Made by a program: the position numbers and the translations under genes. A stretch of DNA of 64,000 bases from a virus. The DNA is taken from the IMG/VR virus record IMGVR_UViG_3300029243_000160, positions 81,209 through 145,208 of that record. One strand, 5' to 3'. The notes below the pieces were generated by a model. The model was given only the letters and a program-made list of their open reading frames with translations. It was not told the DNA's origin and made no database searches. Positions 12,427 through 62,121 of the stretch are shown here, in pieces (position 1 is the stretch's first letter; each line of letters begins with the position of its first letter).

Positions 12427-14229
12427 ATGGCAAAACTTACACTCGATGAAATGCTTGACGATGTGAAAGCGAGAGAAGCTATCACAGAAGAAGCACAAGA
12501 AACCACAGAAATGATTCACAATGCTACAGAAAAACTGATTGATGCAGCTGTGTCTGGAAAAGTGACGATTCTCTCTGACTACGATGCAGACGGTATTTGC
12601 TCTGCATACATTCTGGAACACACCGTCAAGGCGATTGCTCCGGACTGCGATGTAGATGTGCAGCTGAATGACAGGCGTGGTTCTTACGGCTTGTCTCCAG
12701 ATTTACAGGGTGAAGATGACCGTCATTATATCATCTCTGATATGGGAAGCAATCAGCTTCCCTTTGCCAGAGAACAGCTCGGTGATGATGTTATTATCAT
12801 CGACCATCATCTAATTGAAGACGATGCAATCCGCAATGCTTTTGTGGACAACACTGACAATAACAAAGGACTTCTGAATCCCCATGCCCTGCATGAAAAC
12901 GATGAAATGAATGCACAATATTGTGCAACCGGACTTGCGTATCGTGTTTTTCAAGAAATGCCTGCTCTGGCACAGAACAAATCCATTCAACCGCAAATTA
13001 CAGAAAAGCTGGAAAACACGATGGCTGTCATGGCTGCTATCGGTACAGCCACGGATATGGTTGATGTGTTGGACACACACAGCAACAATCGTGAAATCCT
13101 CAAAGACGGACTACGCAGAATCGACAACGCAGATGAAAAGAATCTGGATTTTGTAATCGGCAATATGCTTGCACGAAACAATATTCCGGACGGTGTGACT
13201 GCACACCAGTTGGCATTCAATGTTGGTGCGTTCTTAAATTCCGCATCACGCATGAGTGAAATTGCTGGCGAGAATGGTGCAGCAAGAATGTACAAAGCTA
13301 TCACTGGCGATGAATCGTCAGCAAAAACCTATCGGGAGCTTGATTTCTTGCAGGAACAAAACACACAGCGTAAAGCTCTGATTGGAGAACTGACGACCTC
13401 GGACGAATACAAGGCGTTTGTGCAGGAACAACGCTACGGCAATGACAAGGACAACAACATTGCTGTCTATCAGCTTCCGGATAACGTGCCTCACGCATTT
13501 GCCGGACTGGTTGCAGGAAAACTTGCCGAAGCAACGGACAAAGCAATTCTGTGCGTGACCTACGAAGATAAAACGCAGTCTTACTCCGGCAGTGGCAGAA
13601 ATACTGCAAACAACGAAACCAGTCTGAAAGCGTTTGTGGATTCCATTGTTGCCAGAGAAGCAGAAGCGTTCGGAGACCAGCAGCTTCAAATGACCTATGG
13701 TGGACACAGCGATGCAATCGGCATTTCTGCTCTGAATGACATCACACGTCTGGAGCAGTTGGTTGATAAGTTTCAGGACGATATGAAACAAAAGCCACTG
13801 GAAGACCGGACATATCTTGACATGAAGCTCAGTGATATTTCCTCGCAGGAAACACTTGCAAAAGTAATGGCTCTTGAACCGACTGGTACTGGACTGCAAC
13901 TGCCGTCTGTTGTTGTGGAAGGCAAGGAAAATAATCGTAACCAGCTCTATAAAAGACAACGACCGGATTGGAAATCTGTTCGTATTGTCGATGATGAAAC
14001 CAAAGAAAAATTCGATATTGCAGACTGGGCATATAACGAAAAATCTTATCCGCAGTTTGAGGGCAACAGAATCGCTCTGGTAGCAGAACTTGGTATCAGC
14101 GATTACAAGGGAATCCATGTAGAGCTGACAGCAAAAACTGACCGTGCTTTTTCTGCGGAACTTGAAAAAACACATTTTCAGGAAAAGAATCATTCGACAC
14201 CTGAAAAAGATACATCAAGCGAACGGTGA
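12427..14229 (+). CDS. RecJ-like DHH/DHHA1 phosphoesterase (ssDNA exonuclease family)
   Basis: Motifs LSDYDADGICS, IIIDHH and YGGHSDAIGIS are present. SD GAAAGGAG upstream. Confidence 0.85.
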   Translation: MAKLTLDEMLDDVKAREAITEEAQETTEMIHNATEKLIDAAVSGKVTILSDYDADGICSAYILEHTVKAIAPDCDVDVQLNDRRGSYGLSPDLQGEDDRHYIISDMGSNQLPFAREQLGDDVIIIDHHLIEDDAIRNAFVDNTDNNKGLLNPHALHENDEMNAQYCATGLAYRVFQEMPALAQNKSIQPQITEKLENTMAVMAAIGTATDMVDVLDTHSNNREILKDGLRRIDNADEKNLDFVIGNMLARNNIPDGVTAHQLAFNVGAFLNSASRMSEIAGENGAARMYKAITGDESSAKTYRELDFLQEQNTQRKALIGELTTSDEYKAFVQEQRYGNDKDNNIAVYQLPDNVPHAFAGLVAGKLAEATDKAILCVTYEDKTQSYSGSGRNTANNETSLKAFVDSIVAREAEAFGDQQLQMTYGGHSDAIGISALNDITRLEQLVDKFQDDMKQKPLEDRTYLDMKLSDISSQETLAKVMALEPTGTGLQLPSVVVEGKENNRNQLYKRQRPDWKSVRIVDDETKEKFDIADWAYNEKSYPQFEGNRIALVAELGISDYKGIHVELTAKTDRAFSAELEKTHFQEKNHSTPEKDTSSER

Positions 14230-15578: not shown

Positions 15579-16862
15579 CTATCGTTTTCTTGCACCTAAT
15601 GGATTGCAAACATACTTACGTTCTCCGGACTGTTTTTCTTTCAGTCCATCGAAGTATTCGCCGAGTGATTTCATTTCCATTTGTTTCAGTTCTTTGGTTG
15701 CGTCTGCATAGATGTTCATGGTTGTCTCTGCATCTGCGTGACCCAAGATTTCCTGCATCGCTTTGATGTTGACACCAGCTTCGCACATTCGTGTTGTGAA
15801 CGTATGTCTGAGATAGTGACAGCTGAATGGTGGAAGCGTAAGCCCCATCTTGTCAAGCTGTTTGAAGTTGCAATCTCGGATAATTCTTTTCAGTGCTTTG
15901 TTGAGTGTTCCCTGATGCTGAACATTCCCAAAACGATTGATAAAAATAAAATCTGTATAGCCGTCAATCTTTGACTTGCATACCAAATTATTTTCTTTTT
16001 GATACTGTCGTTCCATTCGGAACATTTCCTTGACAATCGGCAACATCGGAATGGTTCTTTCCCCTGCCTTTGTCTTCGGAAGGTTTACTGCGAAACCACA
16101 GGTTTCTTCTCCCGCACGTCTTCTGTCGAAGTACACCAGCGTGTGATTGACGCTGATTGCTTCGTTCTCCATGTCGAGGTCGCACCAGCGTAAACCTGTT
16201 ACTTCTCCGACACGCATTCCGGTGTAAAGCATTACCATAAAAATCGGTTGCCAATGCTGATACTCTGGAGTAAGTGCCAGATAATTTTCAAAAACTTCCT
16301 GCTCTTTCACGGTTAAAGCTCTTCTTTTCATAATATCACGTTCCCTTGCTTTTTTCAATTCTTTCAATGCTCCGTCTGACGGATTGAACCTCATGTATTC
16401 GTCTTCTACACCAAGTTCCAGAACCTGATGCAGGACTGTGTGTACACTGTCCACCGTACTGACTTTCAAGCTTCTTGTTTCTGCAAGGTAGTTGTAAAAA
16501 GCTCTGACATCTGACTTTCGCAGGTCGTCAATTTTTGTGTTTCCGAAGTCTGGTTCAACAAACTGTTCGTACATATAGCAATAGTTCGTGAAGGTGTTGA
16601 CTTTCAATCCACGCTTCACCTGTTTCCATCTGCAATATAAATCGTTGATAGTCATATTCTTGCTATCCGGATTTATGCCGTCCAGCATATCCCTCAGAAC
16701 ATCGGTTTCTTTCTCTCGCAAATCTTCAAGCGTCTTTCCATACACTGTTCTTCGCCTGCCTGTTTTATCACGCCAGCGAAATTCATATGTGCCGTTTGGA
16801 CGCTCGTATTCTCCTTCTTTGAGAACACGTCTTTTGCTGTCTTTTCTTCTCTCTACTGCCAT
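15579..16862 (-). CDS. int: Tyrosine recombinase/integrase, Tn916-Int-like, with an N-terminal arm-binding domain
   Basis: C-terminal HYLRHTFTTRM...ILGHADAETTMNIYAD carries the R/H-x-x-R/H/Y catalytic pattern. The N-terminus RRKDSKRRVLKEGEYERPNGTYEFRW resembles the Tn916 Int arm-binding domain. SD AAGGAG. Confidence 0.95.
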   Translation of the reverse strand: MAVERRKDSKRRVLKEGEYERPNGTYEFRWRDKTGRRRTVYGKTLEDLREKETDVLRDMLDGINPDSKNMTINDLYCRWKQVKRGLKVNTFTNYCYMYEQFVEPDFGNTKIDDLRKSDVRAFYNYLAETRSLKVSTVDSVHTVLHQVLELGVEDEYMRFNPSDGALKELKKARERDIMKRRALTVKEQEVFENYLALTPEYQHWQPIFMVMLYTGMRVGEVTGLRWCDLDMENEAISVNHTLVYFDRRRAGEETCGFAVNLPKTKAGERTIPMLPIVKEMFRMERQYQKENNLVCKSKIDGYTDFIFINRFGNVQHQGTLNKALKRIIRDCNFKQLDKMGLTLPPFSCHYLRHTFTTRMCEAGVNIKAMQEILGHADAETTMNIYADATKELKQMEMKSLGEYFDGLKEKQSGERKYVCNPLGARKR

Positions 16863-17199: not shown

Positions 17200-17262
17200 T
17201 TTACTCTGTATTATATCCGTTATTTTCATTTACAATATATCAATTTCCCGAAGCACTGTCAA
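17200..17262 (-). promoter_or_regulatory. xis-int promoter (TTGACA-17-TATATT) with the 24-bp box downstream of the -10, in front of the SD
   Basis: -35 at 17257-17262, -10 at 17234-17239, box TTTACTCTGTATTATATCCGTTAT at 17200-17223 (plus-strand text). Confidence 0.65.
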
Positions 17263-17439: not shown

Positions 17440-17468
17440 ATTATACCACTTTTGCGAACACAAGTCAA
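17440..17468 (-). promoter_or_regulatory. Promoter TTGACT-17-TATAAT with a displaced fragment of the cassette spacer
   Basis: -10 at 17440-17445, -35 at 17463-17468. AGCACAGTAGTGTACA follows the -35 instead of lying in the spacer. Confidence 0.5.
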
Positions 17469-28568: not shown

Positions 28569-28634
28569 ATTATAGCACAATAGTGTACAAAAGTCAAGCA
28601 ATAACTGTTGTTTACTCTGTAAATTATCCGTTAT
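28569..28634 (-). promoter_or_regulatory. Type-1 cassette promoter plus 24-bp box
   Basis: -10 at 28569-28574, -35 at 28592-28597, 13-nt gap, box at 28611-28634. Confidence 0.8.
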
Positions 28635-35240: not shown

Positions 35241-35306
35241 ATTATAGCATAATAGTGTACAAATGTCAAGGTATATTAAGGTGTTACTCTGTAGATTATT
35301 CGTTAT
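35241..35306 (-). promoter_or_regulatory. Type-1 cassette promoter plus 24-bp box
   Basis: -10 at 35241-35246, -35 at 35264-35269, 13-nt gap, box at 35283-35306. Confidence 0.8.
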
Positions 35307-35890: not shown

Positions 35891-35945
35891 GTCAATTACC
35901 TCATTTCTCTTTGCTTTTGCGTATAAGGTTATATTTAATTATAGC

Positions 35946-35974
35946 ACAGTAGTGTACATTTGTCAAGGTGGTGT
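35946..35974 (-). promoter_or_regulatory. Type-1 cassette promoter, box-less copy, driving the sigma4/alpha-CTD gene
   Basis: -10 at 35946-35951, -35 at 35969-35974. No 24-bp box lies upstream. Confidence 0.8.
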
Positions 35975-40210: not shown

Positions 40211-40266
40211 ATTATAGCCGTTTCATCAATCTATGTCAACCGTTACTGAATGTTTATATCCGTTAT
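40211..40266 (-). promoter_or_regulatory. traX-operon promoter TTGACA-17-TATAAT with a partial box
   Basis: -10 at 40211-40216, -35 at 40234-40239, TATATCCGTTAT at 40255-40266. Confidence 0.65.
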
Positions 40267-45743: not shown

Positions 45744-45809
45744 ATTATAGCACAGTAGTGTACAAATGTCAAGTGCTTTTAGATGTTTACTCTGTAAAAT
45801 ATCCGTTAT
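45744..45809 (-). promoter_or_regulatory. Type-1 cassette promoter plus 24-bp box; its downstream flank matches the type-2 cassette
   Basis: Exact 30-mer. -10 at 45744-45749, -35 at 45767-45772, box at 45786-45809. ACCTTACATATA lies at 45730-45741. Confidence 0.8.
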
Positions 45810-51769: not shown

Positions 51770-51804
51770 AGATTTACGATTGTTCGTGTTTCTTACAATA
51801 TCTA

Positions 51805-51870
51805 TTATAGCACAGTAGTGTACAAATGTCAAGCGTTTTGCTCGTTTTACTCTGTAAATTATTCGTTATG
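51805..51870 (-). promoter_or_regulatory. Type-1 cassette promoter plus 24-bp box
   Basis: Exact 30-mer. -10 at 51805-51810, -35 at 51828-51833, box at 51847-51870. Confidence 0.8.
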
Positions 51871-51969: not shown

Positions 51970-54081
51970 TTACTCTCTTACTGGAAGAGAAGCGATTGTG
52001 TGAACCAAGAACTGCAACAGAGCAGTGGAATCGTTGGCATCAATGTTACCGTCCGCATAGCACTCTGCATTGTCCTTTGCCTGCTCGTTCAGCATAACAG
52101 AACCTGCGGTTGCCTTGTTCAGCAGAACAGCATCGGAGATGTCCACTCTGCCGTCCAGCGTAACATCGCCCAGCAGAATTGTACCACTGCTGCCCTGTGT
52201 GGTTACTGTAGTGGTGGTTGTGGAAGAACCCTGTCCTGTGGTGCTGGTGGTCGTTGTGCCACCGTCCAGAGCAACGAACGGAATGTTGTTCGCAGTAGCA
52301 TATGCTTCTACAGTAGAACCTGTATAACCATACAGTGTCAGGTTATCGCAACTACCAAATGCTTTGTTCTCAATCATAATATCTGTTCTGGTAATCTTAG
52401 CTTCTCGCAATCCGGTATTCACAAATGCGTATTTTCCAATGAATGTAACATTAGAAAAATCAAAAGATTCCAGCTGTCGGCAGCTGGAAAACTGACCGCC
52501 GTTCAATCTGAGTTCTCCGTCTCCATAGGTCTTTACAGTTGTGAGATTGTACATACTTGTAAATTCTATATTTGCAGAACAGTTTACGCCCTTTTTCCCA
52601 AGCTCGAACGGTCGTTCTGTGTTGTTCATGTACAGCTCCAATGTTGAAGAAATTTTATTTCCATCTTCATCAGAAGTTGCTGTCATAATATCATCAAAAG
52701 CACCTTCATACCATTGGCTATCGTCATATACACCCAGCTTCAAGGATTCCAGTTCGGCACAATTCTTGAAAGCTTCGTTGTCAAAAAGGTGTGCAGAAGT
52801 TAAGTCCAAGCTTTTCAATTTATAGCAATTCACGAAAGCTTCTCTGCCGAAGCCAAGAGCGTTGCCAACATTGACCTTCGTCAGGTTTTCACAATAAGAG
52901 AAGTTTCCGTCACTATAATACAGCTCACCATTTCCGACTACTTCAAAAGTGTTCAGCAATCTATCTTCACGTTCAAAGTCATCAGGGAGAACATAAGCGT
53001 CCTCATTGTTGGTGTAAATCGTCATCGAATACGGCTTGACGTTTCCTTCACTTTTTTGTCTTCGCCCAAACGCATATTCTCCTATTTCCAGCTTATCGTT
53101 CAGGGCAATTTGAATATCGTTTGCACTTGTACAACCAAGAAAAGCAGCATCGCCAATGTACCGCAGATTTTTGTTCTTCAACTGAATCTCTGACAGCTGT
53201 GTACAGCCTTCAAACGCATCATCAGCAACAACAACGACATGAGAGAAATCAAAATTTCTCAGCATAGTGTTGTTCCGAAACGCCATGTTTCCGATGCCAA
53301 CTTCTCCGTCACCTTCAAAGCGTACTTCACGGATTCTGTTGCTGTCATAAAATCCGCTAGAAATTGTCATCATGTTGCTCTTATCCATATTGAGCTGGAA
53401 GGTCAAAGTGAACGCCGTTCCAAAAGCTTTGCTCTCACCAAAAATATGCTGACCTATGCCGTTAAGCTGTGCTGCTTCACAGTTTTTATCAGTAATACTG
53501 ATTGTGACTTCTTCCAGAGAAGAACAGCCACTGAACGCTTCGTTGCCAACACGCCCCAGTTTCGTATTTGTCAGATTTACAGTCGTCAGCTTTTCACAAC
53601 CCATAAATGCGTAGTCCAACATATCTACGATTTTCTCAAAAGCCACCGTCTTCATGCGAGAACAGCCGTGAAATGCGTCCTTGTAGAGTACCATTTCTTC
53701 ATTTTCAAAGTCCACAGACTTCAAATTGGTGCAGTTTGCAAATGCGGCTTCGCCAATAAATTTCACATCTTCTGCCAGTGTCAGGCTGACGTTTTCCAGT
53801 TCACGGAATGCTTCTGTAGTGCCAGTCACAGTATAATTACCGTCACCATTATCTTCAAACGTAAAGTAATCTGTCTGACTGGTATCACACTGTACCTCTA
53901 CAGGAACATTTGTAGTGGCTTCTACAAGCACAGGTGCTGTATCAGATACAATAGTGTCGCTGTCTGTTACAACAACATCACTTGCAGGAAGGTCTACCGC
54001 CCACGCAGTCATCGGCAGTGCCTGTATACACATGACACCAGCCAACAGCAAACCTGCTGCCGTTCGTTTTAATTTCTTCAT
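51970..54081 (-). CDS. BspA-type leucine-rich-repeat surface protein with a C-terminal type-I dockerin
   Basis: Signal peptide. Many F.gC..L..v repeats. C-terminal GDVTLDGRVDISDAVLLNK...GNIDANDSTALLQF dockerin. Confidence 0.9.
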   Translation of the reverse strand: MKKLKRTAAGLLLAGVMCIQALPMTAWAVDLPASDVVVTDSDTIVSDTAPVLVEATTNVPVEVQCDTSQTDYFTFEDNGDGNYTVTGTTEAFRELENVSLTLAEDVKFIGEAAFANCTNLKSVDFENEEMVLYKDAFHGCSRMKTVAFEKIVDMLDYAFMGCEKLTTVNLTNTKLGRVGNEAFSGCSSLEEVTISITDKNCEAAQLNGIGQHIFGESKAFGTAFTLTFQLNMDKSNMMTISSGFYDSNRIREVRFEGDGEVGIGNMAFRNNTMLRNFDFSHVVVVADDAFEGCTQLSEIQLKNKNLRYIGDAAFLGCTSANDIQIALNDKLEIGEYAFGRRQKSEGNVKPYSMTIYTNNEDAYVLPDDFEREDRLLNTFEVVGNGELYYSDGNFSYCENLTKVNVGNALGFGREAFVNCYKLKSLDLTSAHLFDNEAFKNCAELESLKLGVYDDSQWYEGAFDDIMTATSDEDGNKISSTLELYMNNTERPFELGKKGVNCSANIEFTSMYNLTTVKTYGDGELRLNGGQFSSCRQLESFDFSNVTFIGKYAFVNTGLREAKITRTDIMIENKAFGSCDNLTLYGYTGSTVEAYATANNIPFVALDGGTTTTSTTGQGSSTTTTTVTTQGSSGTILLGDVTLDGRVDISDAVLLNKATAGSVMLNEQAKDNAECYADGNIDANDSTALLQFLVHTIASLPVRE

Positions 54082-54197
54082 GTTTCCTTGTCCTTTCAAA
54101 ATATCTATCTGATTTGCTTTTTTATAAAAGCTGGAGAATGGTGCATCATTTCCAGCGTTTTACCTCAGCTGATTTGTCAGTAAATATGCTGACTTTT

Positions 54198-55175: not shown

Positions 55176-55634
55176 TTATTTTGCGGAATACAGCTTATGC
55201 TTGTCCGAAAAATTCATGAGCCATTCATGAGCCATTTTTTCTGCTTCATCAAACGTGTTGCCTGTTACTTTAAGGAAAATTGCTCGCTTGTGAAGTAGTG
55301 TACTCAGCAGAACATTATCTCTGTCTGCATCGTTGCTGACAGTATACCACTGTCCGGATTTACCGAAATACACAATGTATTCTCGCTTTTCCACTCCGTT
55401 ATCAGAAGTTGTTTCCACAGAAAGAATGTCGTTCTCAAAGATTGGATTGTCGCTCCGGTCTTGAAATCCGGTATACTGGCTCACGGTTTCTCCGCAAACC
55501 ACATAATCGGTGTCGTCCTTGCCACGAATGAAGTGCTGTACAGACTTTCCGGTTAAAAAGTTCTCCTTGTAATAGTAGCCTTCTACCCATTTTCTGTTGC
55601 TTTCTCGCTTTGCCTTAAATAAAATCTCTCTCAT
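55176..55634 (-). CDS. YopX-family phage protein (copy 1)
   Basis: MREILFKAKR...KWVEGYYY...QYTGFQD...IFENDIL is typical of YopX. First gene after type-2 cassette copy b. Confidence 0.8.
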   Translation of the reverse strand: MREILFKAKRESNRKWVEGYYYKENFLTGKSVQHFIRGKDDTDYVVCGETVSQYTGFQDRSDNPIFENDILSVETTSDNGVEKREYIVYFGKSGQWYTVSNDADRDNVLLSTLLHKRAIFLKVTGNTFDEAEKMAHEWLMNFSDKHKLYSAK

Positions 55635-56398: not shown

Positions 56399-56610
56399 AC
56401 TGTACCTCTTCTTTCTGCTTGTTTTGCTTCGTGATAACTTATCGTCAGATTATTCCAACTGTCCACTATGGGGCAGCCTTTTGGACAACTTCCGATTGTG
56501 GTTTCTGTCATCACCGGAGAGATGCACTCTGGATTCCGGCAGAACAACCAATCGTCATATTCACAAGGCTCATCATCAAAATTTATGCCTTTGCAGGCTG
56601 CTTCAAGCAT
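56395..56610 (-). CDS. Hypothetical small Cys-rich protein
   Basis: 71 aa. Overlaps both neighbouring genes by a few nt. Confidence 0.5.
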   Translation of the reverse strand: MLEAACKGINFDDEPCEYDDWLFCRNPECISPVMTETTIGSCPKGCPIVDSWNNLTISYHEAKQAERRGTV

Positions 56611-57004
56611 TGAGCATCACCTCAGAGATTTTTTCCATATTATCAAATGCGTTGTCAACGACCTCATAGCGAACCGCCAACGTCAGCTTAAACAAGTCAT
56701 ACACTTCCTGTTCTTTGTTTATGCTGACAGCAACCCAGTTTCCAGTAGGCTCGCAGAAATACACAAGAAAGTCGGTGAAATCTTCTGGCTTTTCCGAGTG
56801 CCACACACGGAGAATATCGCTTTCAAAGATTCTCCGGACGTTTGCATCATAGAATCCGGTAAATTCGCATAACGTCTCCGGATAGACGTGATAATCTGTA
56901 TCGCCCTGTCGGATATAACAGCTTTTCTCACCGTCTTTGAAGAAATACCCTTCTACCCACCGTGCATTGCTTGTTCGCTTTGCTCTGAACAAAATTTCTC
57001 TCAT
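56603..57004 (-). CDS. YopX-family phage protein (copy 2)
   Basis: MREILFRAKR...RWVEGYFF...EFTGFYD...IFESDIL. Paralog of 55176-55634. Confidence 0.8.
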   Translation of the reverse strand: MREILFRAKRTSNARWVEGYFFKDGEKSCYIRQGDTDYHVYPETLCEFTGFYDANVRRIFESDILRVWHSEKPEDFTDFLVYFCEPTGNWVAVSINKEQEVYDLFKLTLAVRYEVVDNAFDNMEKISEVMLNA

Positions 57005-57736: not shown

Positions 57737-58264
57737 TTAGTTGTCAAAGACGTGTTCTTCGCAGTAATCACACCATTCCTTCTTCATGTCAGTGATAGCT
57801 TGTTTGTAGTCTTCTCCGTTCAGGATTCGCTCCAACGCCTTCTTTCCGGCAGCGGCTCTCGCATTATTGCTGGAAGAATAAGCGTAGCTCTCAGCTTTCA
57901 TGTAAGCATTTGCTCTGTGGTACTTCCGCACCAGTTCTTCCAGACTTGCTTCCGGCTTCTTCGGTGCTTTTCCCTCTGCATCATCTTCGATGAAACGGCG
58001 GTAAGCAATATAGTATTCCTTCCATGCAATCGAGGCATCTTCCAGCTCCTGCAATCCTTCGATTGCATTCATCTTTTTCAGACGCTCCAGATGCTGTTGT
58101 TCTTCGATTGCCTTCTGTTCTTCAATGTAGGCAATGATTTCATCTCTATGTTCTTTGATGTATGCCTTGTCATCTTCGTGTTTCAGGATTTCTCTCCTTA
58201 CGCAAAGGTTTTTGTTCGGGTTTGCTCTGATAGTGTACTTCTCCACAATTTCCGGAATAGTCAT
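57737..58264 (-). CDS. Hypothetical protein (paralog pair B, copy 2)
   Basis: SD AAGGAG. Shares a long similar block with 58535-59065 (EGLQELEDA..AW.EYY....RFIE..AEGKAPKKPEA.L.ELV.KY.R.NAY). Confidence 0.6.
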   Translation of the reverse strand: MTIPEIVEKYTIRANPNKNLCVRREILKHEDDKAYIKEHRDEIIAYIEEQKAIEEQQHLERLKKMNAIEGLQELEDASIAWKEYYIAYRRFIEDDAEGKAPKKPEASLEELVRKYHRANAYMKAESYAYSSSNNARAAAGKKALERILNGEDYKQAITDMKKEWCDYCEEHVFDN

Positions 58265-58534: not shown

Positions 58535-59065
58535 TCAGTTGTCCCAAACGGTCTTATCACAATAATCTTTCCATTCCTGCTCCATGTCTGTGATAACTTG
58601 CTGATAGTCTTCACCGTTCAGGATTCTCTTCGCAGCCTTTCGCCCGATAGCAGCTTTGTGATAGTTGCTGGCAAAAGAAAACGCCTCGGCATTCAGGTAA
58701 GCATTGGTTCTCGGATATTTCTGAACCAGCTCTTTTAGGTTGGCTTCTGGCTTTTTGGGTGCTTTTCCCTCAGCTCCACGCTCAATAAATCTGTTATACC
58801 AGTAATAGTAATATTCCCACGCATCTTTTGCATCTTCCAGCTCACGCAAACCTTCCAGTGCATTCAGTTTTGCCTGTTGTTCCTCAGCTTCACGCTTCAT
58901 GCTTTCTTCATGTTCTTTCAGATAGTCAACGATTTCTGTCTTGTGACTTCTCACGAAGTCAAGATGCTCCTGATTCTCTGTAACGCTTCTGTTAAGGAAA
59001 ATCCTATCGTTATTTTCTATTCTGTGAATTTGATATATCTCAACAGCTTTTTCGATTGTCAGCAT
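58535..59065 (-). CDS. Hypothetical protein (paralog pair B, copy 1)
   Basis: ATG59065 with SD AAAGGAG. First gene after type-2 cassette copy c. Confidence 0.6.
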   Translation of the reverse strand: MLTIEKAVEIYQIHRIENNDRIFLNRSVTENQEHLDFVRSHKTEIVDYLKEHEESMKREAEEQQAKLNALEGLRELEDAKDAWEYYYYWYNRFIERGAEGKAPKKPEANLKELVQKYPRTNAYLNAEAFSFASNYHKAAIGRKAAKRILNGEDYQQVITDMEQEWKDYCDKTVWDN

Positions 59066-59097
59066 ATTAACCACTCCTTTGGCTTCTGCTTGTCTTT

Positions 59098-59176
59098 GCC
59101 TTACATATACTATTATATAGTATCTACTGTAAGATATATTGCAGTTTGTTTTGCTAACCTGTAAACCTTTTGTAAA
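59098..59176 (-). promoter_or_regulatory. Type-2 cassette copy c (-10 TATAAT)
   Basis: GCCTTACATATACTATTATATAGTATCTACTGTAAGATATATTGCAG...GTAAACCTTTTGTAAA. Confidence 0.6.
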
Positions 59177-59189
59177 GGTTGAAAAATGC

Positions 59190-59219
59190 AAAAATCAGCC
59201 CATACCACAGTACAGACTG
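59190..59219 (-). terminator. Intrinsic terminator, homolog of 51914-51942
   Basis: CAGUCUGUAC-UGUG-GUAUGGGCUG followed by a U-tract. Confidence 0.65.
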
Positions 59220-60869: not shown

Positions 60870-61021
60870 GCAATTGCACACTCCTTTTCCAGCTCCTGAG
60901 CAGGCTTCTTTGCCAAAATCTCATCGCAGGAACGCTCACGCTGATACTTCTTGTCCAGTTCTTCCAGCTTGGCAGCAAGCTGTTCCTTTGTGAAATTCAT
61001 GAAATAATGTTCTTTCGTCAT
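60866..61021 (-). CDS. Possible 51-aa protein (below the ORF-track cutoff)
   Basis: ATG61021 with SD AAAGGAG. ATGA overlap with the downstream gene. First coding sequence after the long non-coding leader. Confidence 0.45.
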   Translation of the reverse strand: MTKEHYFMNFTKEQLAAKLEELDKKYQRERSCDEILAKKPAQELEKECAIA

Positions 61022-61079
61022 TTGCTATCTTCTCCTTTTAACAACATAATAAAAGCCCTCTGTTTCATCAGAAGGCTGT

Positions 61080-61158
61080 TGGTGTCCCCAATCGGGCTTT
61101 CACCGATACGCTTGCGGTGCATTCACCAAACCGCTTGTTCTACTTAAACTACAGGGAC
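61080..61158 (-). ncRNA. tRNA-like unit U0: 79-nt cloverleaf with an 11-nt 'anticodon' loop and encoded ACCA
   Basis: GTCCCTG|TA|GTTT-AAGTA-GAAC|AA|GCGGT-TTGGTGAATGC-ACCGC|AAGCGT|ATCGG-TGAAAGC-CCGAT|TGGGGAC|A|CCA. Confidence 0.45.
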
Positions 61159-61235
61159 GCAGTAAGGAAACGCTATGGCGAACGCTTCCTCGTTATGAAT
61201 TGACTGTTGCAAAGCAAACGGAGATACTTTGCAAA

Positions 61236-61315
61236 TGGTGTCTGAGGCAGGATTTGCACCAGCATCATTCGCATTGAAAATAATTTCAACTGCAATGATT
61301 TACTCGAACTCAGGC
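61236..61315 (-). ncRNA. tRNA-like unit U1: 80 nt, acceptor plus T-arm with one long bulged hairpin instead of D and anticodon arms
   Basis: GCCTGAG|TTCGAGTAAA|14-bp bulged hairpin with TTAT loop|T|GCTGG-TGCAAAT-CCTGC|CTCAGAC|A|CCA. Confidence 0.4.
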
Positions 61316-61393
61316 ATTGAGGGAGAGACAAAATCAAGGAGATAAAGAAAAACTCTCCCTCGTGATAAGGTATATGGTTTGTTATGACGCTGT

Positions 61394-61512
61394 TGGTGTC
61401 TGAGGCAGGACTTGCACCCACATTCTGTATCGTTTATCACTACATAGCTTCTCTCTGGTGTTGCAAATGGCTTTTTGCTCCAGCTACAGTGTTTTACTTA
61501 AACTACTCAGAC
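61394..61512 (-). ncRNA. tRNA-like unit U2: 119 nt, cloverleaf with a 55-nt segment (about 48 nt more than a normal 7-nt loop) in the anticodon-loop position
   Basis: GTCTGAG|TA|GTTT-AAGTA-AAAC|A|CTGTA-(55 nt)-TACAG|AAT|GTGGG-TGCAAGT-CCTGC|CTCAGAC|A|CCA. The 7-bp acceptor stem is perfect. Confidence 0.45.
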
Positions 61513-61842
61513 ACAAGACGGAGAAATGGATAAACTCCGTCTTGCAAATTTATAATAAGGAGATGATACGCACCACAAAGTCAAATGGGTAAAACATTGT
61601 GATACGCTGAGGATTGTTGTGCCAAATCGCAGGAGCGACCTGCTTTTCGGCATATGACAGGCTTTCACTGTCTCGCTGTGATTTCCACACATAAAAATAA
61701 GGAGTAAGCCCCATGGTGGGGTTGAAGAAAAATAATATAGGGGTAATGGGAAAAAATAAAAATGTTTCAGTACGCAGTTTTCACCGCAATACCATTGGGA
61801 AAAAATAGAGGAATGTGTAAGGTAGCGTTCCTTACATTGTTT

Positions 61843-61908
61843 ATTATAGCACAATGGTGTACGAATGTCAAGTGTTTTTGTGGATTTACTCTGTAAATTA
61901 TCCGTTAC
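61843..61908 (-). promoter_or_regulatory. Type-1 cassette promoter plus 24-bp box, driving the non-coding leader
   Basis: -10 at 61843-61848, -35 at 61866-61871, 13-nt gap, box at 61885-61908. Confidence 0.8.
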
Positions 61909-61947
61909 AAAAACTGTTGAATCTTGTGGATAACGCACAAATACGCA

Positions 61948-62121
61948 TTATTCCCCATTCAATTTCAGCTCTTTGCGAATCACGCCAGTGATGGTCGTGT
62001 GCTGGGCTTTTGCCATTTCGCACAGTTTCGCATACTCTTCGTTTGTGAACAGCAGGGACAGTCTTTTTCTGGAAGCAACATACTTCTTCTGTGCCTTTTT
62101 CGCTGCTATTGTCTTCGGCAT
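61948..62121 (-). CDS. Ribbon-helix-helix (CopG/Arc-like) small protein
   Basis: ATG62121 lies 9 nt after AAAGGAG. RLSLLFTNEEYAKLCEMAKAQHTTITGVIRKEL has an RHH pattern. Confidence 0.6.
   Translation of the reverse strand: MPKTIAAKKAQKKYVASRKRLSLLFTNEEYAKLCEMAKAQHTTITGVIRKELKLNGE

Follow-up and report, generated by a model that had tools for sequence, protein, structure and literature searches.

A human-gut phage locus predicted to produce a conserved non-coding RNA with three tandem tRNA-like units lacking a decoding loop

The work described here concerns a stretch of 64,000 nucleotides (nt) of viral DNA (IMG/VR record IMGVR_UViG_3300029243_000160, positions 81,209 to 145,208 of that record; the whole of this stretch is referred to below as the window), and in particular a locus at its positions 61,022 to 61,908, which contains in tandem three paralogous units resembling tRNAs, viz. 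U2 (61394-61512), U1 (61236-61309) and U0 (61080-61158). All features of the locus are on the minus strand. Its promoter (61843-61871) is of the sigma-70 type, viz. TTGACA-17-TATAAT with a TG extension, and it matches the consensus in 12 of 12 positions, in agreement with the strong cassette promoter that an earlier, sequence-only reading of this DNA had placed here. From the position of this promoter, transcription is predicted to start near 61836. The predicted transcript of about 790 nt begins with a 5'-terminal hairpin (H0; 61816-61836), read from the sequence, which is followed by a conserved structured leader of 159 nt (61514-61672), and it ends at an intrinsic terminator (61046-61077), where a 9-bp stem (61054-61077) is followed by UUUUAUUAU just before a Shine-Dalgarno (SD) sequence and an ATG at 61021. 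The promoter belongs to eight near-identical cassettes on the minus strand, and a promoter scan of the window gave 10 matches as compared to 0.58 expected by chance. Whereas every other cassette is followed by an SD sequence and an ATG within about 110 nt, the cassette at 61843-61871 alone is followed by this stretch of about 790 nt.

Relatives of the locus were sought by pattern scans of IMG/VR, a metagenome collection and GTDB genomes, as well as by look-ups anchored on the RNase H-like protein encoded downstream. About 30 related copies were found, all of them on human-gut phage or prophage contigs, and they form only two clades, referred to here as W-type and L-type. The W-type copies, which include the one in the window, have the order promoter cassette, leader, U2, a short U1, U0 and terminator. 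In the L-type copies the leader is followed by a U2 of 125 nt and by a unit of 127 nt (U1'), whose D-arm is complete and whose long arm is interrupted, and U0 is absent. The L-type promoter (GTGACA-17-TATAAT) is located upstream of a ribbon-helix-helix (RHH)-like gene, and this clade has no terminator; the L-type RNAs lie inside an operon, with the RHH-like gene upstream and a 53-aa open reading frame (ORF) and then the RNase H-like gene downstream. As the L-type copies are present on contigs of 350-850 kb, they are integrated prophages. Common to both clades are the 159-nt leader and U2, whereas U0, the hairpin H0, the dedicated consensus promoter and the terminator are found in the W-type only. 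The W-type U1 corresponds to U1' minus about 53 nt, with a T-stem mismatch in every variant of the clade, and U0 is identical in six W-type copies and carries a 14-nt deletion in one low-coverage copy. Deletions of 13-14 nt just past the D-loop are seen in two low-coverage contigs, L154 (in U0) and L173 (in U1'), and the loss of about 53 nt in the W-type U1 is similar; these could be recurrent real events at one spot or assembly artefacts. No DNA match to the locus, or to positions 40000-64000 of the window, was detected in 50,697 deposited phage genomes, among which weak partial protein matches were obtained for one ORF (27-1331) only. The lone hit in a GTDB species-representative genome proved to be a chance match in a high-GC coding region, and loci with metallophosphoesterase homologues had no such units. 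The locus is unannotated and absent from Rfam, and the family is a narrow one.

The sizeable ORFs in the stretch of about 790 nt are without SD sequences, and one of 54 aa (61550-61714) has a stop codon and a frameshift in the L-type clade. The indels between the clades are of 7 nt and about 53 nt, neither of which is a multiple of three, and independent metagenome gene callers left most of the stretch empty. No reading frame is conserved across the locus, in agreement with the earlier statement that the region has no credible ORF.

Each of the three units has the 3' end GAC-A-CCA that the sequence-only reading had pointed out, and their 3' signature, GGTGMAARYCC..GACACCA, has 3 occurrences, as compared to 0.08 expected. 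A descriptor scan of the 64-kb window revealed no further unit. The limits given earlier for U2 and U0 were correct, whereas U1, placed at 61236-61315, exists as a unit but starts at 61309, where the homologous start GTTCGAG is located. U2, which is 119 nt in length, has a 7-bp acceptor stem (7/7 paired), a 4-bp D-stem with a 5-nt loop, an anticodon-type stem of 5 bp that is lengthened by 3 bp, a T-arm of the sequence GUGGG-UGCAAGU-CCUGC (5/5 paired), and A73 followed by CCA. In place of the 7-nt anticodon loop it contains an insert of 55 nt (61430-61484), whose flanks are conserved whereas its middle varies in sequence and in length (61 nt in the L-type). When searched in sensitive mode with the Rfam tRNA model, U2 matched over its whole length at 32.8 bits, as against a gathering score (GA) of 29; the alignment has an insertion of 57 nt at the anticodon loop, and the score is reached only in local alignment with this insertion and with permissive filters. 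The L-type U1' scored 29.4 bits (GA 29) with a 64-nt insertion at the anticodon loop. U1, a truncated unit of 74 nt, scored 21.6 bits, which is below GA; its acceptor stem is 6/7 paired with one C.A mismatch, its T-stem is 4/5 paired with a U.U or C.A mismatch, and its middle is made up of one long hairpin. U0, of 79 nt, has a complete cloverleaf as its minimum-free-energy fold, with an acceptor stem that is 7/7 paired (2 G-U), a T-stem that is 5/5 paired and an anticodon loop of 11 nt (or an alternative 10-bp arm), and no hit for it was reported by the sensitive Rfam tRNA search. In all three units A-CCA follows the acceptor stem. The T-loops of the units are UGCAAGU, UGCAAAU and, in U0, UGAAAGC, which have kept U54 and A58 and have G55 for U55. 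Within the U2 insert, at 61434-61445, an AUG (GUG in relatives) is followed immediately by the in-frame stop codons UAG-UGA-UAA, the third of which is still a stop codon in the L-type (UAA to UAG); the occurrence of these codons together is probably a coincidence.

None of the units has the 7-nt loop by which a decoding tRNA is recognized, with U33 and an anticodon that can be read: U2 has the 55-nt insert, U1 the long hairpin and U0 the 11-nt loop, just as the earlier reading had described them. Because the anticodon loop has been replaced in these ways, the units cannot decode. Default ARAGORN and Rfam in gathering mode called no tRNA in the 64-kb window. The T-loops beginning with TG had also been taken as a sign of abnormal decoders; they are indeed present, but this interpretation of them is not correct. 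In 174 distinct phage tRNAs called by ARAGORN, a sample taken from the fetched loci and biased by the search pattern, a TG T-loop was accompanied by a D-loop without GG in 26 of 29 cases, and a TT T-loop by a D-loop with GG in 95 of 101. The T-arm and 3' end of the units are also found in phage tRNAs of ordinary size that have normal anticodons by ARAGORN (Arg, Leu, Ile, Gln and others), mostly in large arrays. Since the TG T-loop is thus common in ordinary-looking phage tRNAs, it provides no evidence against decoding; that evidence comes from the anticodon region. As indicated by these shared sequence features, the units are descendants of a phage tRNA type with an alternative elbow (UGCAA/UGAAA T-loop, D-loop without GG).

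Whole phage tRNA arrays with the alternative elbow were observed in L084, L087, L089, L126, L146, L149, L155 and other fetched loci. Other tRNA-like units for which ARAGORN made no call are located in L114 (reverse strand, 13001-13148), L135 (8520-8667), L112 (5053-5152), L074 (7594-7665) and L103. These include a 148-nt unit in phage tRNA arrays, in which about 85 nt stand where the anticodon loop should be, a unit of 100 nt, and a 72-nt unit with a 5-nt loop in L074 and L103, two loci in which ARAGORN found no tRNA. The expansion of the anticodon loop, as judged from such units, may be more widespread in phages.

The leader that precedes U2 is 76% identical between the two clades. When both clades were analysed with RNAalifold, it formed five helices with 35 pairs, of which 2 are compensatory and the rest are kept via G-U changes, and the pairing is broken only by two G-to-T changes in one low-coverage contig. 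Its elements are, in order, H3 with a T-loop-like 7-nt loop, the nested H4-5, a 9-bp helix enclosing the conserved loop UUUUAYCCCAUUUGA, the single-stranded CAUCUCCUU, and H6, which is conserved and ends 1 nt before G+1 of U2. The 7-nt loop of H3 (61656-61672), UGAAAGC, is that of the U0 T-arm, and H5 (GCAGG-UCGCU-CCUGC, within 61621-61651) has the stem sequence of the U1' T-stem and, nested in a 6-bp stem, is minihelix-like. The leader may itself have been built of degenerate tRNA-like units. Of the spacer hairpins, H7 between U2 and U1 (61319-61361) is present in both clades and shows one compensatory change from G-C to A-U. H8 (61207-61234) and H9 (61164-61191), in which one pair occurs as G-U, G-C and A-U among the variants, are of the W-type only. 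The motif ATCTCC(TT), a complement of the Shine-Dalgarno sequence AAGGAGAT, is found at three sites of the predicted transcript that are single-stranded, viz. in the leader (about 61546-61553) and in the loops of the hairpins at 61319-61361 and 61207-61234. The leader copy, CATCTCCTT, is the only one of these motifs that is conserved in the L-type.

The acceptor, D and T stems had been stated to covary, and this was borne out by a comparison of six paralogue and orthologue cores, in which 97.9% of the cells are paired and 6 pairs have changed on both sides, a result equalled by none of 500 shuffles. Among six variants of U2, all 24 pairs of the cloverleaf plus its extension are kept, with one pair occurring as G-C, G-U and A-U and three T-stem pairs changed. 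Of the helix substitutions within the clades, 13 keep the pairing and 4 break it (2 in one low-coverage contig and 2 in U1). Many of the changes are from G-C or A-U to G-U, and as these preserve pairing only on the minus strand, they fit a constraint at the RNA level on the transcribed strand. Further, U2 is 83% identical between the clades, with full (100%) identity over its first 28 nt, as compared to 60-80% for the flanking genes and 59% for the spacers, and U2 is intact in all of the approximately 30 copies. By these comparisons U2 is under purifying selection. Due to the conservation of the leader and U2 in both clades, as against the deletion in U1 and the restriction of U0 to one clade, the leader and U2 are indicated to be the selected core of the locus, and U1 and U0 to be dispensable, fast-evolving paralogues.

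Based on these results, the locus is interpreted as encoding a conserved non-coding structured RNA, whose units keep every feature of a tRNA except the decoding loop. The core of the sequence-only reading, viz. a structured RNA without coding function that is placed under a promoter and has three tRNA-like units in tandem, not one of them a normal decoder, is supported by Rfam, by covariation and by the approximately 30 copies. In regard to function, there is in our view about an even chance that the units are a set of translation-inert tRNA mimics, which would be cut out by tRNA-processing enzymes. In the W-type, the transcript of about 790 nt would be made from the phage cassette promoter, which is presumably early and repressor-controlled. 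RNase P, the 3'-maturation enzymes, the CCA enzyme and several tRNA-targeting toxins recognize an acceptor stem of 7 bp that stacks on a T-stem of 5 bp, together with the elbow and NCCA. Since the units carry the 7-bp acceptor and 5-bp T-stem, A73 and an encoded CCA, cleavage by RNase P would be expected at the G+1 of every unit, together with 3' trimming as far as CCA. This would yield RNAs that have the shape of a tRNA and lengths of about 119, 74 and 79 nt, and the leader RNA, with a hairpin at its 3' end, would be freed in the same step. The mimics could then occupy factors that read the body or the 3' end of tRNAs, e.g. tRNA-targeting defence nucleases or nucleotidyltransferases; alternatively, the units may be a stable scaffold that presents a variable arm.

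However, a number of observations weigh against the interpretation of the units as mimics. The cloverleaf of U2 is not its unconstrained minimum-free-energy fold (z = -0.34), and when the U2 orthologues are taken by themselves the shuffle control does not reach significance (164/500); as there are only two clades, the number of independent substitutions is small. The inner fold of the U2 arm differs between the two clades, and due to this no specific scaffolded cargo is evident; a common fold of this arm was considered and rejected for the same reason. No sites complementary to the conserved blocks of the U2 arm are present in the window, in view of which an antisense regulator was also rejected, and no tRNA-targeting system or partner protein was identified near the locus. 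Further, U1 is decaying, U0 is clade-specific and two copies have deletions. Lastly, the placement of the L-type units within an operon without a terminator fits a purely cis-acting role in processing equally well.

Such a cis-acting role is unlikely in our assessment, though it is the main alternative. According to this explanation, the units are processing or stability modules that recruit RNase P and 3' processing, and the transcript would be cut into pieces with separate fates, the tRNA-like pieces being by-products. The effect could be to provide a hairpin-protected 3' end for the leader RNA, with its exposed anti-Shine-Dalgarno-like CAUCUCCUU, or for the upstream RHH mRNA, and to uncouple the downstream genes. 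The L-type arrangement, where the units lie between the RHH-like and the 53-aa/RNase H-like genes with the sole promoter before the RHH-like gene and no terminator, is in accordance with this, as are the conserved hairpin H6 with its end 1 nt before G+1 of U2, the conservation and structure of the leader, which match those of U2, and the ATCTCC motifs in single-stranded places. However, a processing module has no need for the invariant 28-nt 5' half, the D-arm or the conserved blocks of the insert, and among the CU-rich motifs the leader copy alone is conserved in the L-type. In addition, the acquisition by the W-type of a dedicated consensus promoter and a terminator on either side of the RNAs suggests that it is the RNAs themselves that are the product.

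It is more doubtful that the units are decaying pseudogenes, i.e. functionless remnants of a former phage tRNA array. The loss of about 53 nt from the W-type U1, along with the mismatches in its acceptor and T-stem in every variant, the absence of U0 from one clade, the deletions of 13-14 nt in L154 and L173, and the lack of any bona fide tRNA by ARAGORN in the 64-kb window are all of the kind that decay would produce. However, all of the about 30 copies have an intact U2, which exceeds the neighbouring genes in conservation, every substitution in its stems keeps the pairing, the leader shows compensatory changes, and a promoter with a 12/12 consensus match drives the unit.

A further explanation, which we consider very unlikely, is that U2 is a class-II-like tRNA-Ser(GGA) decoder with an intron of 29 nt (35 nt in the L-type), giving a spliced loop C-U-GGA-A-G, and that U0 is a tRNA-Thr(GGU) with a 4-nt insertion in its loop. 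With introns allowed and at its default threshold, ARAGORN reads U2 as a tRNA-Ser(gga) that has a long variable arm and is interrupted by an intron of 29 nt; at a relaxed threshold, the use of which had been suggested with the sequence-only reading, it reports U0 as a tRNA-Thr(ggt) with 4 nt inserted. Both clades have kept the exon-like junctions CUGG|A and AG|AAG, and the middle of the insert is variable, and for these two reasons the explanation is retained at a low probability. However, the alternative anticodon stem that it requires has 2-4 G-U pairs, and in all four variants examined the resulting fold is worse by 1.4-11.3 kcal/mol than the long-arm fold of U2 (fold A). ARAGORN makes no intron call in the L-type, and in the same mode it reports numerous spurious introns in ordinary arrays of phage tRNAs. 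An intron of 29-35 nt is far too small for group I and no group I hit was obtained; even for the whole insert of 55-61 nt a group I intron, with a core of about 200 nt or more, was rejected, there being no Intron_gpI hit at E<=10. Further, the discriminator of bacterial tRNA-Ser is G73 whereas U2 has A73, an intron of 4 nt in U0 is implausible, and we know of no protein-based tRNA-splicing pathway in bacteria. For U2 to act as a tRNA-Ser(GGA)-type decoder with a 29-35-nt intron, the host or the prophage would need a form of splicing unknown in bacteria, either protein-based or by a very small ribozyme, and this we take to be highly improbable.

It is scarcely credible that U2 is a miniature tmRNA-like molecule, with a tRNA-like top half and a short internal frame ending in three in-frame stop codons, for although UAG-UGA-UAA is in frame after 12-14 open codons with the third stop kept in the L-type, and the tmRNA mode of ARAGORN at a relaxed threshold prints the tag GAKSHLQHQREAM followed by three stops, this call takes unrelated leader sequence as the tRNA domain, U2, U1' and U0 have C3-G70 instead of G3:U70, there are no pseudoknots, neither default ARAGORN nor Rfam finds a tmRNA, every between-clade difference within the supposed tag alters the encoded residue, and the 7-nt indel and an indel in an A-run shift the upstream frame.

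Several other candidates were rejected. ROOL and GOLLD, which the earlier reading had named as possible classes, gave no Rfam hit either in gathering mode on the whole window or at E<=10 on 60900-62000; along with these two, tmRNA is excluded by the Rfam searches, and only the tRNA model matched. A Y RNA, ribozymes and riboswitches were likewise excluded by Rfam, the weak twister-sister, snoRNA and cow-rumen hits being far below their thresholds. An attP copy of the 3' half of a host tRNA does not account for the locus, as the cloverleaves are full, with both acceptor strands and D-arms, and the integrase lies at a distance of 45 kb, and a replication origin or primer RNA, considered in view of the adjacent RNase H gene, is not accompanied by a change in GC skew at the locus.

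In comparison to known systems, the units are most directly related to phage tRNAs (RF00005) with the UGCRA T-loop and the GG-less D-loop, which occur in large arrays. They are like these tRNAs in the 7-bp acceptor stem, the 4-bp D-stem, the 5-bp T-stem with its 7-nt loop, A73, CCA and the elbow, and, with the long insertions allowed, U2 and the L-type U1' reach the RF00005 gathering score. However, they have no 7-nt loop with U33, their inserts are of 4, 55-61 or >60 nt, and they are not part of a tRNA array, there being no true tRNA in the 64-kb window. The RNAs RNAC and RNAD of phage T4 are processed like tRNAs. These RNAs (species 1 and 2) are small stable phage RNAs of unknown role, which are transcribed from the tRNA region along with tRNAs (PMC3014915, PMC9697503). 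However, they are part of a cluster of genuine tRNAs and are counted among the late RNAs, whereas the present locus has no true tRNA, a Gram-positive-like host and a conserved 159-nt leader; a sequence relationship is not expected. In tmRNA, a tRNA-like top half with a CCA end is combined with a lower half that is replaced by another RNA domain (PMC3929946), and U2 is similar in its tRNA-like top, its replaced lower half and its insert ending in stop codons. However, a tmRNA is about 300-400 nt in length, as compared to about 119 nt for U2, and U2 is without G3:U70 and without pseudoknots.

The YrlA Y RNAs, which are partners of Ro60, have a tRNA-like domain recognized by tRNA enzymes and are also found in phages (PMC4201824). 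The termini of YrlA form the Ro-binding stem and it is encoded next to rsr, whereas the termini at the present locus are those of an acceptor stem with CCA; neither an rsr-like annotated neighbour nor a hit to an Rfam Y RNA model was found at the locus. The TMERs of murine gammaherpesvirus 68 consist of non-decoding tRNA-like units followed by hairpins, the parts of which are released by tRNA-processing enzymes of the host (PMC4337559). Their layout resembles the order tRNA-like unit, hairpin, tRNA-like unit seen here, but this is an analogy of logic only, as the TMERs are from a eukaryotic virus and have internal Pol III promoters and miRNA cargo, unlike the present locus. Type III toxin-antitoxin systems of the ToxI kind have near-identical repeats of about 34-36 nt, a terminator and a gene for a ToxN-type endoribonuclease, whereas the units described here are of 74-119 nt and dissimilar outside their tRNA parts, and they are followed downstream by a 51-aa ORF and by a gene for an RNase H-family protein. 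By the defining features of tmRNA, YrlA, ROOL, GOLLD and decoding tRNA, the locus is a member of none of these classes, and its sequence identifies it as a tRNA derivative.

The neighbours of the locus in the window encode a metallophosphoesterase, an RHH-like protein, the 51-aa ORF and the RNase H-like protein; a RusA gene is found beside one related L-type copy. Among the other proteins of the window are a Tn916-type integrase (15579-16862), YopX proteins, a helicase and a dockerin/BspA protein. The two YopX-family genes are at 55176-55634 and 56603-57004, and the dockerin/BspA protein, of 709 aa with BspA-type leucine-rich repeats and a type I dockerin, is encoded at 51970-54099, all on the minus strand. 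Tandem paralogous genes of unknown function are located on the same strand at 57737-58264 and 58535-59191. Going by the dockerin/BspA protein and the Tn916-type integrase, which are the only basis for it, our guess is that the host is of a cellulosome-bearing Clostridia type.

The near-identical promoter cassettes, TTGACATTTGTACACTACTGTGCTATAAT, are found on the minus strand at 24149-24177, 28569-28597, 35241-35269, 35938-35966, 45744-45772, 51804-51832 and 61843-61871, and weaker relatives of them at 17234-17262 and 17440-17468. Separate from these is a perfect-consensus promoter at 40211-40239, which does not have the cassette spacer. A TGTACA palindrome is present inside the cassettes, and a box, (C)ATAACGGATAATTTACAGAGTAAA, lies about 12 nt upstream of most of them. 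At the locus itself, the conserved box TAACGGATAATTTACAGAGTAAA (61885-61907), which also precedes most other cassette promoters, is situated upstream of the -35 hexamer and is like an operator or UP-like element of a repeated promoter cassette. Taken together, the cassettes have the appearance of promoters that are regulated jointly through a common operator, and they are reminiscent of the repeated SPBRE elements of the Bacillus phage SPbeta.

Transfer RNA pools are a main battleground of phage-bacterial immunity, as exemplified by anticodon nucleases and by toxins that modify tRNA 3' ends, and phages carry replacement tRNAs. If the units serve in processing only, or are a remnant in decay, the finding is a modest one, viz. 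another instance of tRNA-derived punctuation. However, if the interpretation of the units as mimics is correct, then conserved tRNA look-alikes that are unable to decode, and that are placed under a strong promoter, would represent a strategy of mimicry or decoy rather than of replacement. As a prophage on large bacterial contigs in many human-gut metagenomes, the element would be experimentally reachable once its host is cultured, and it provides a concrete case for the old question of what role is played by the non-decoding RNAs of phage tRNA regions, such as RNAC and RNAD of T4.

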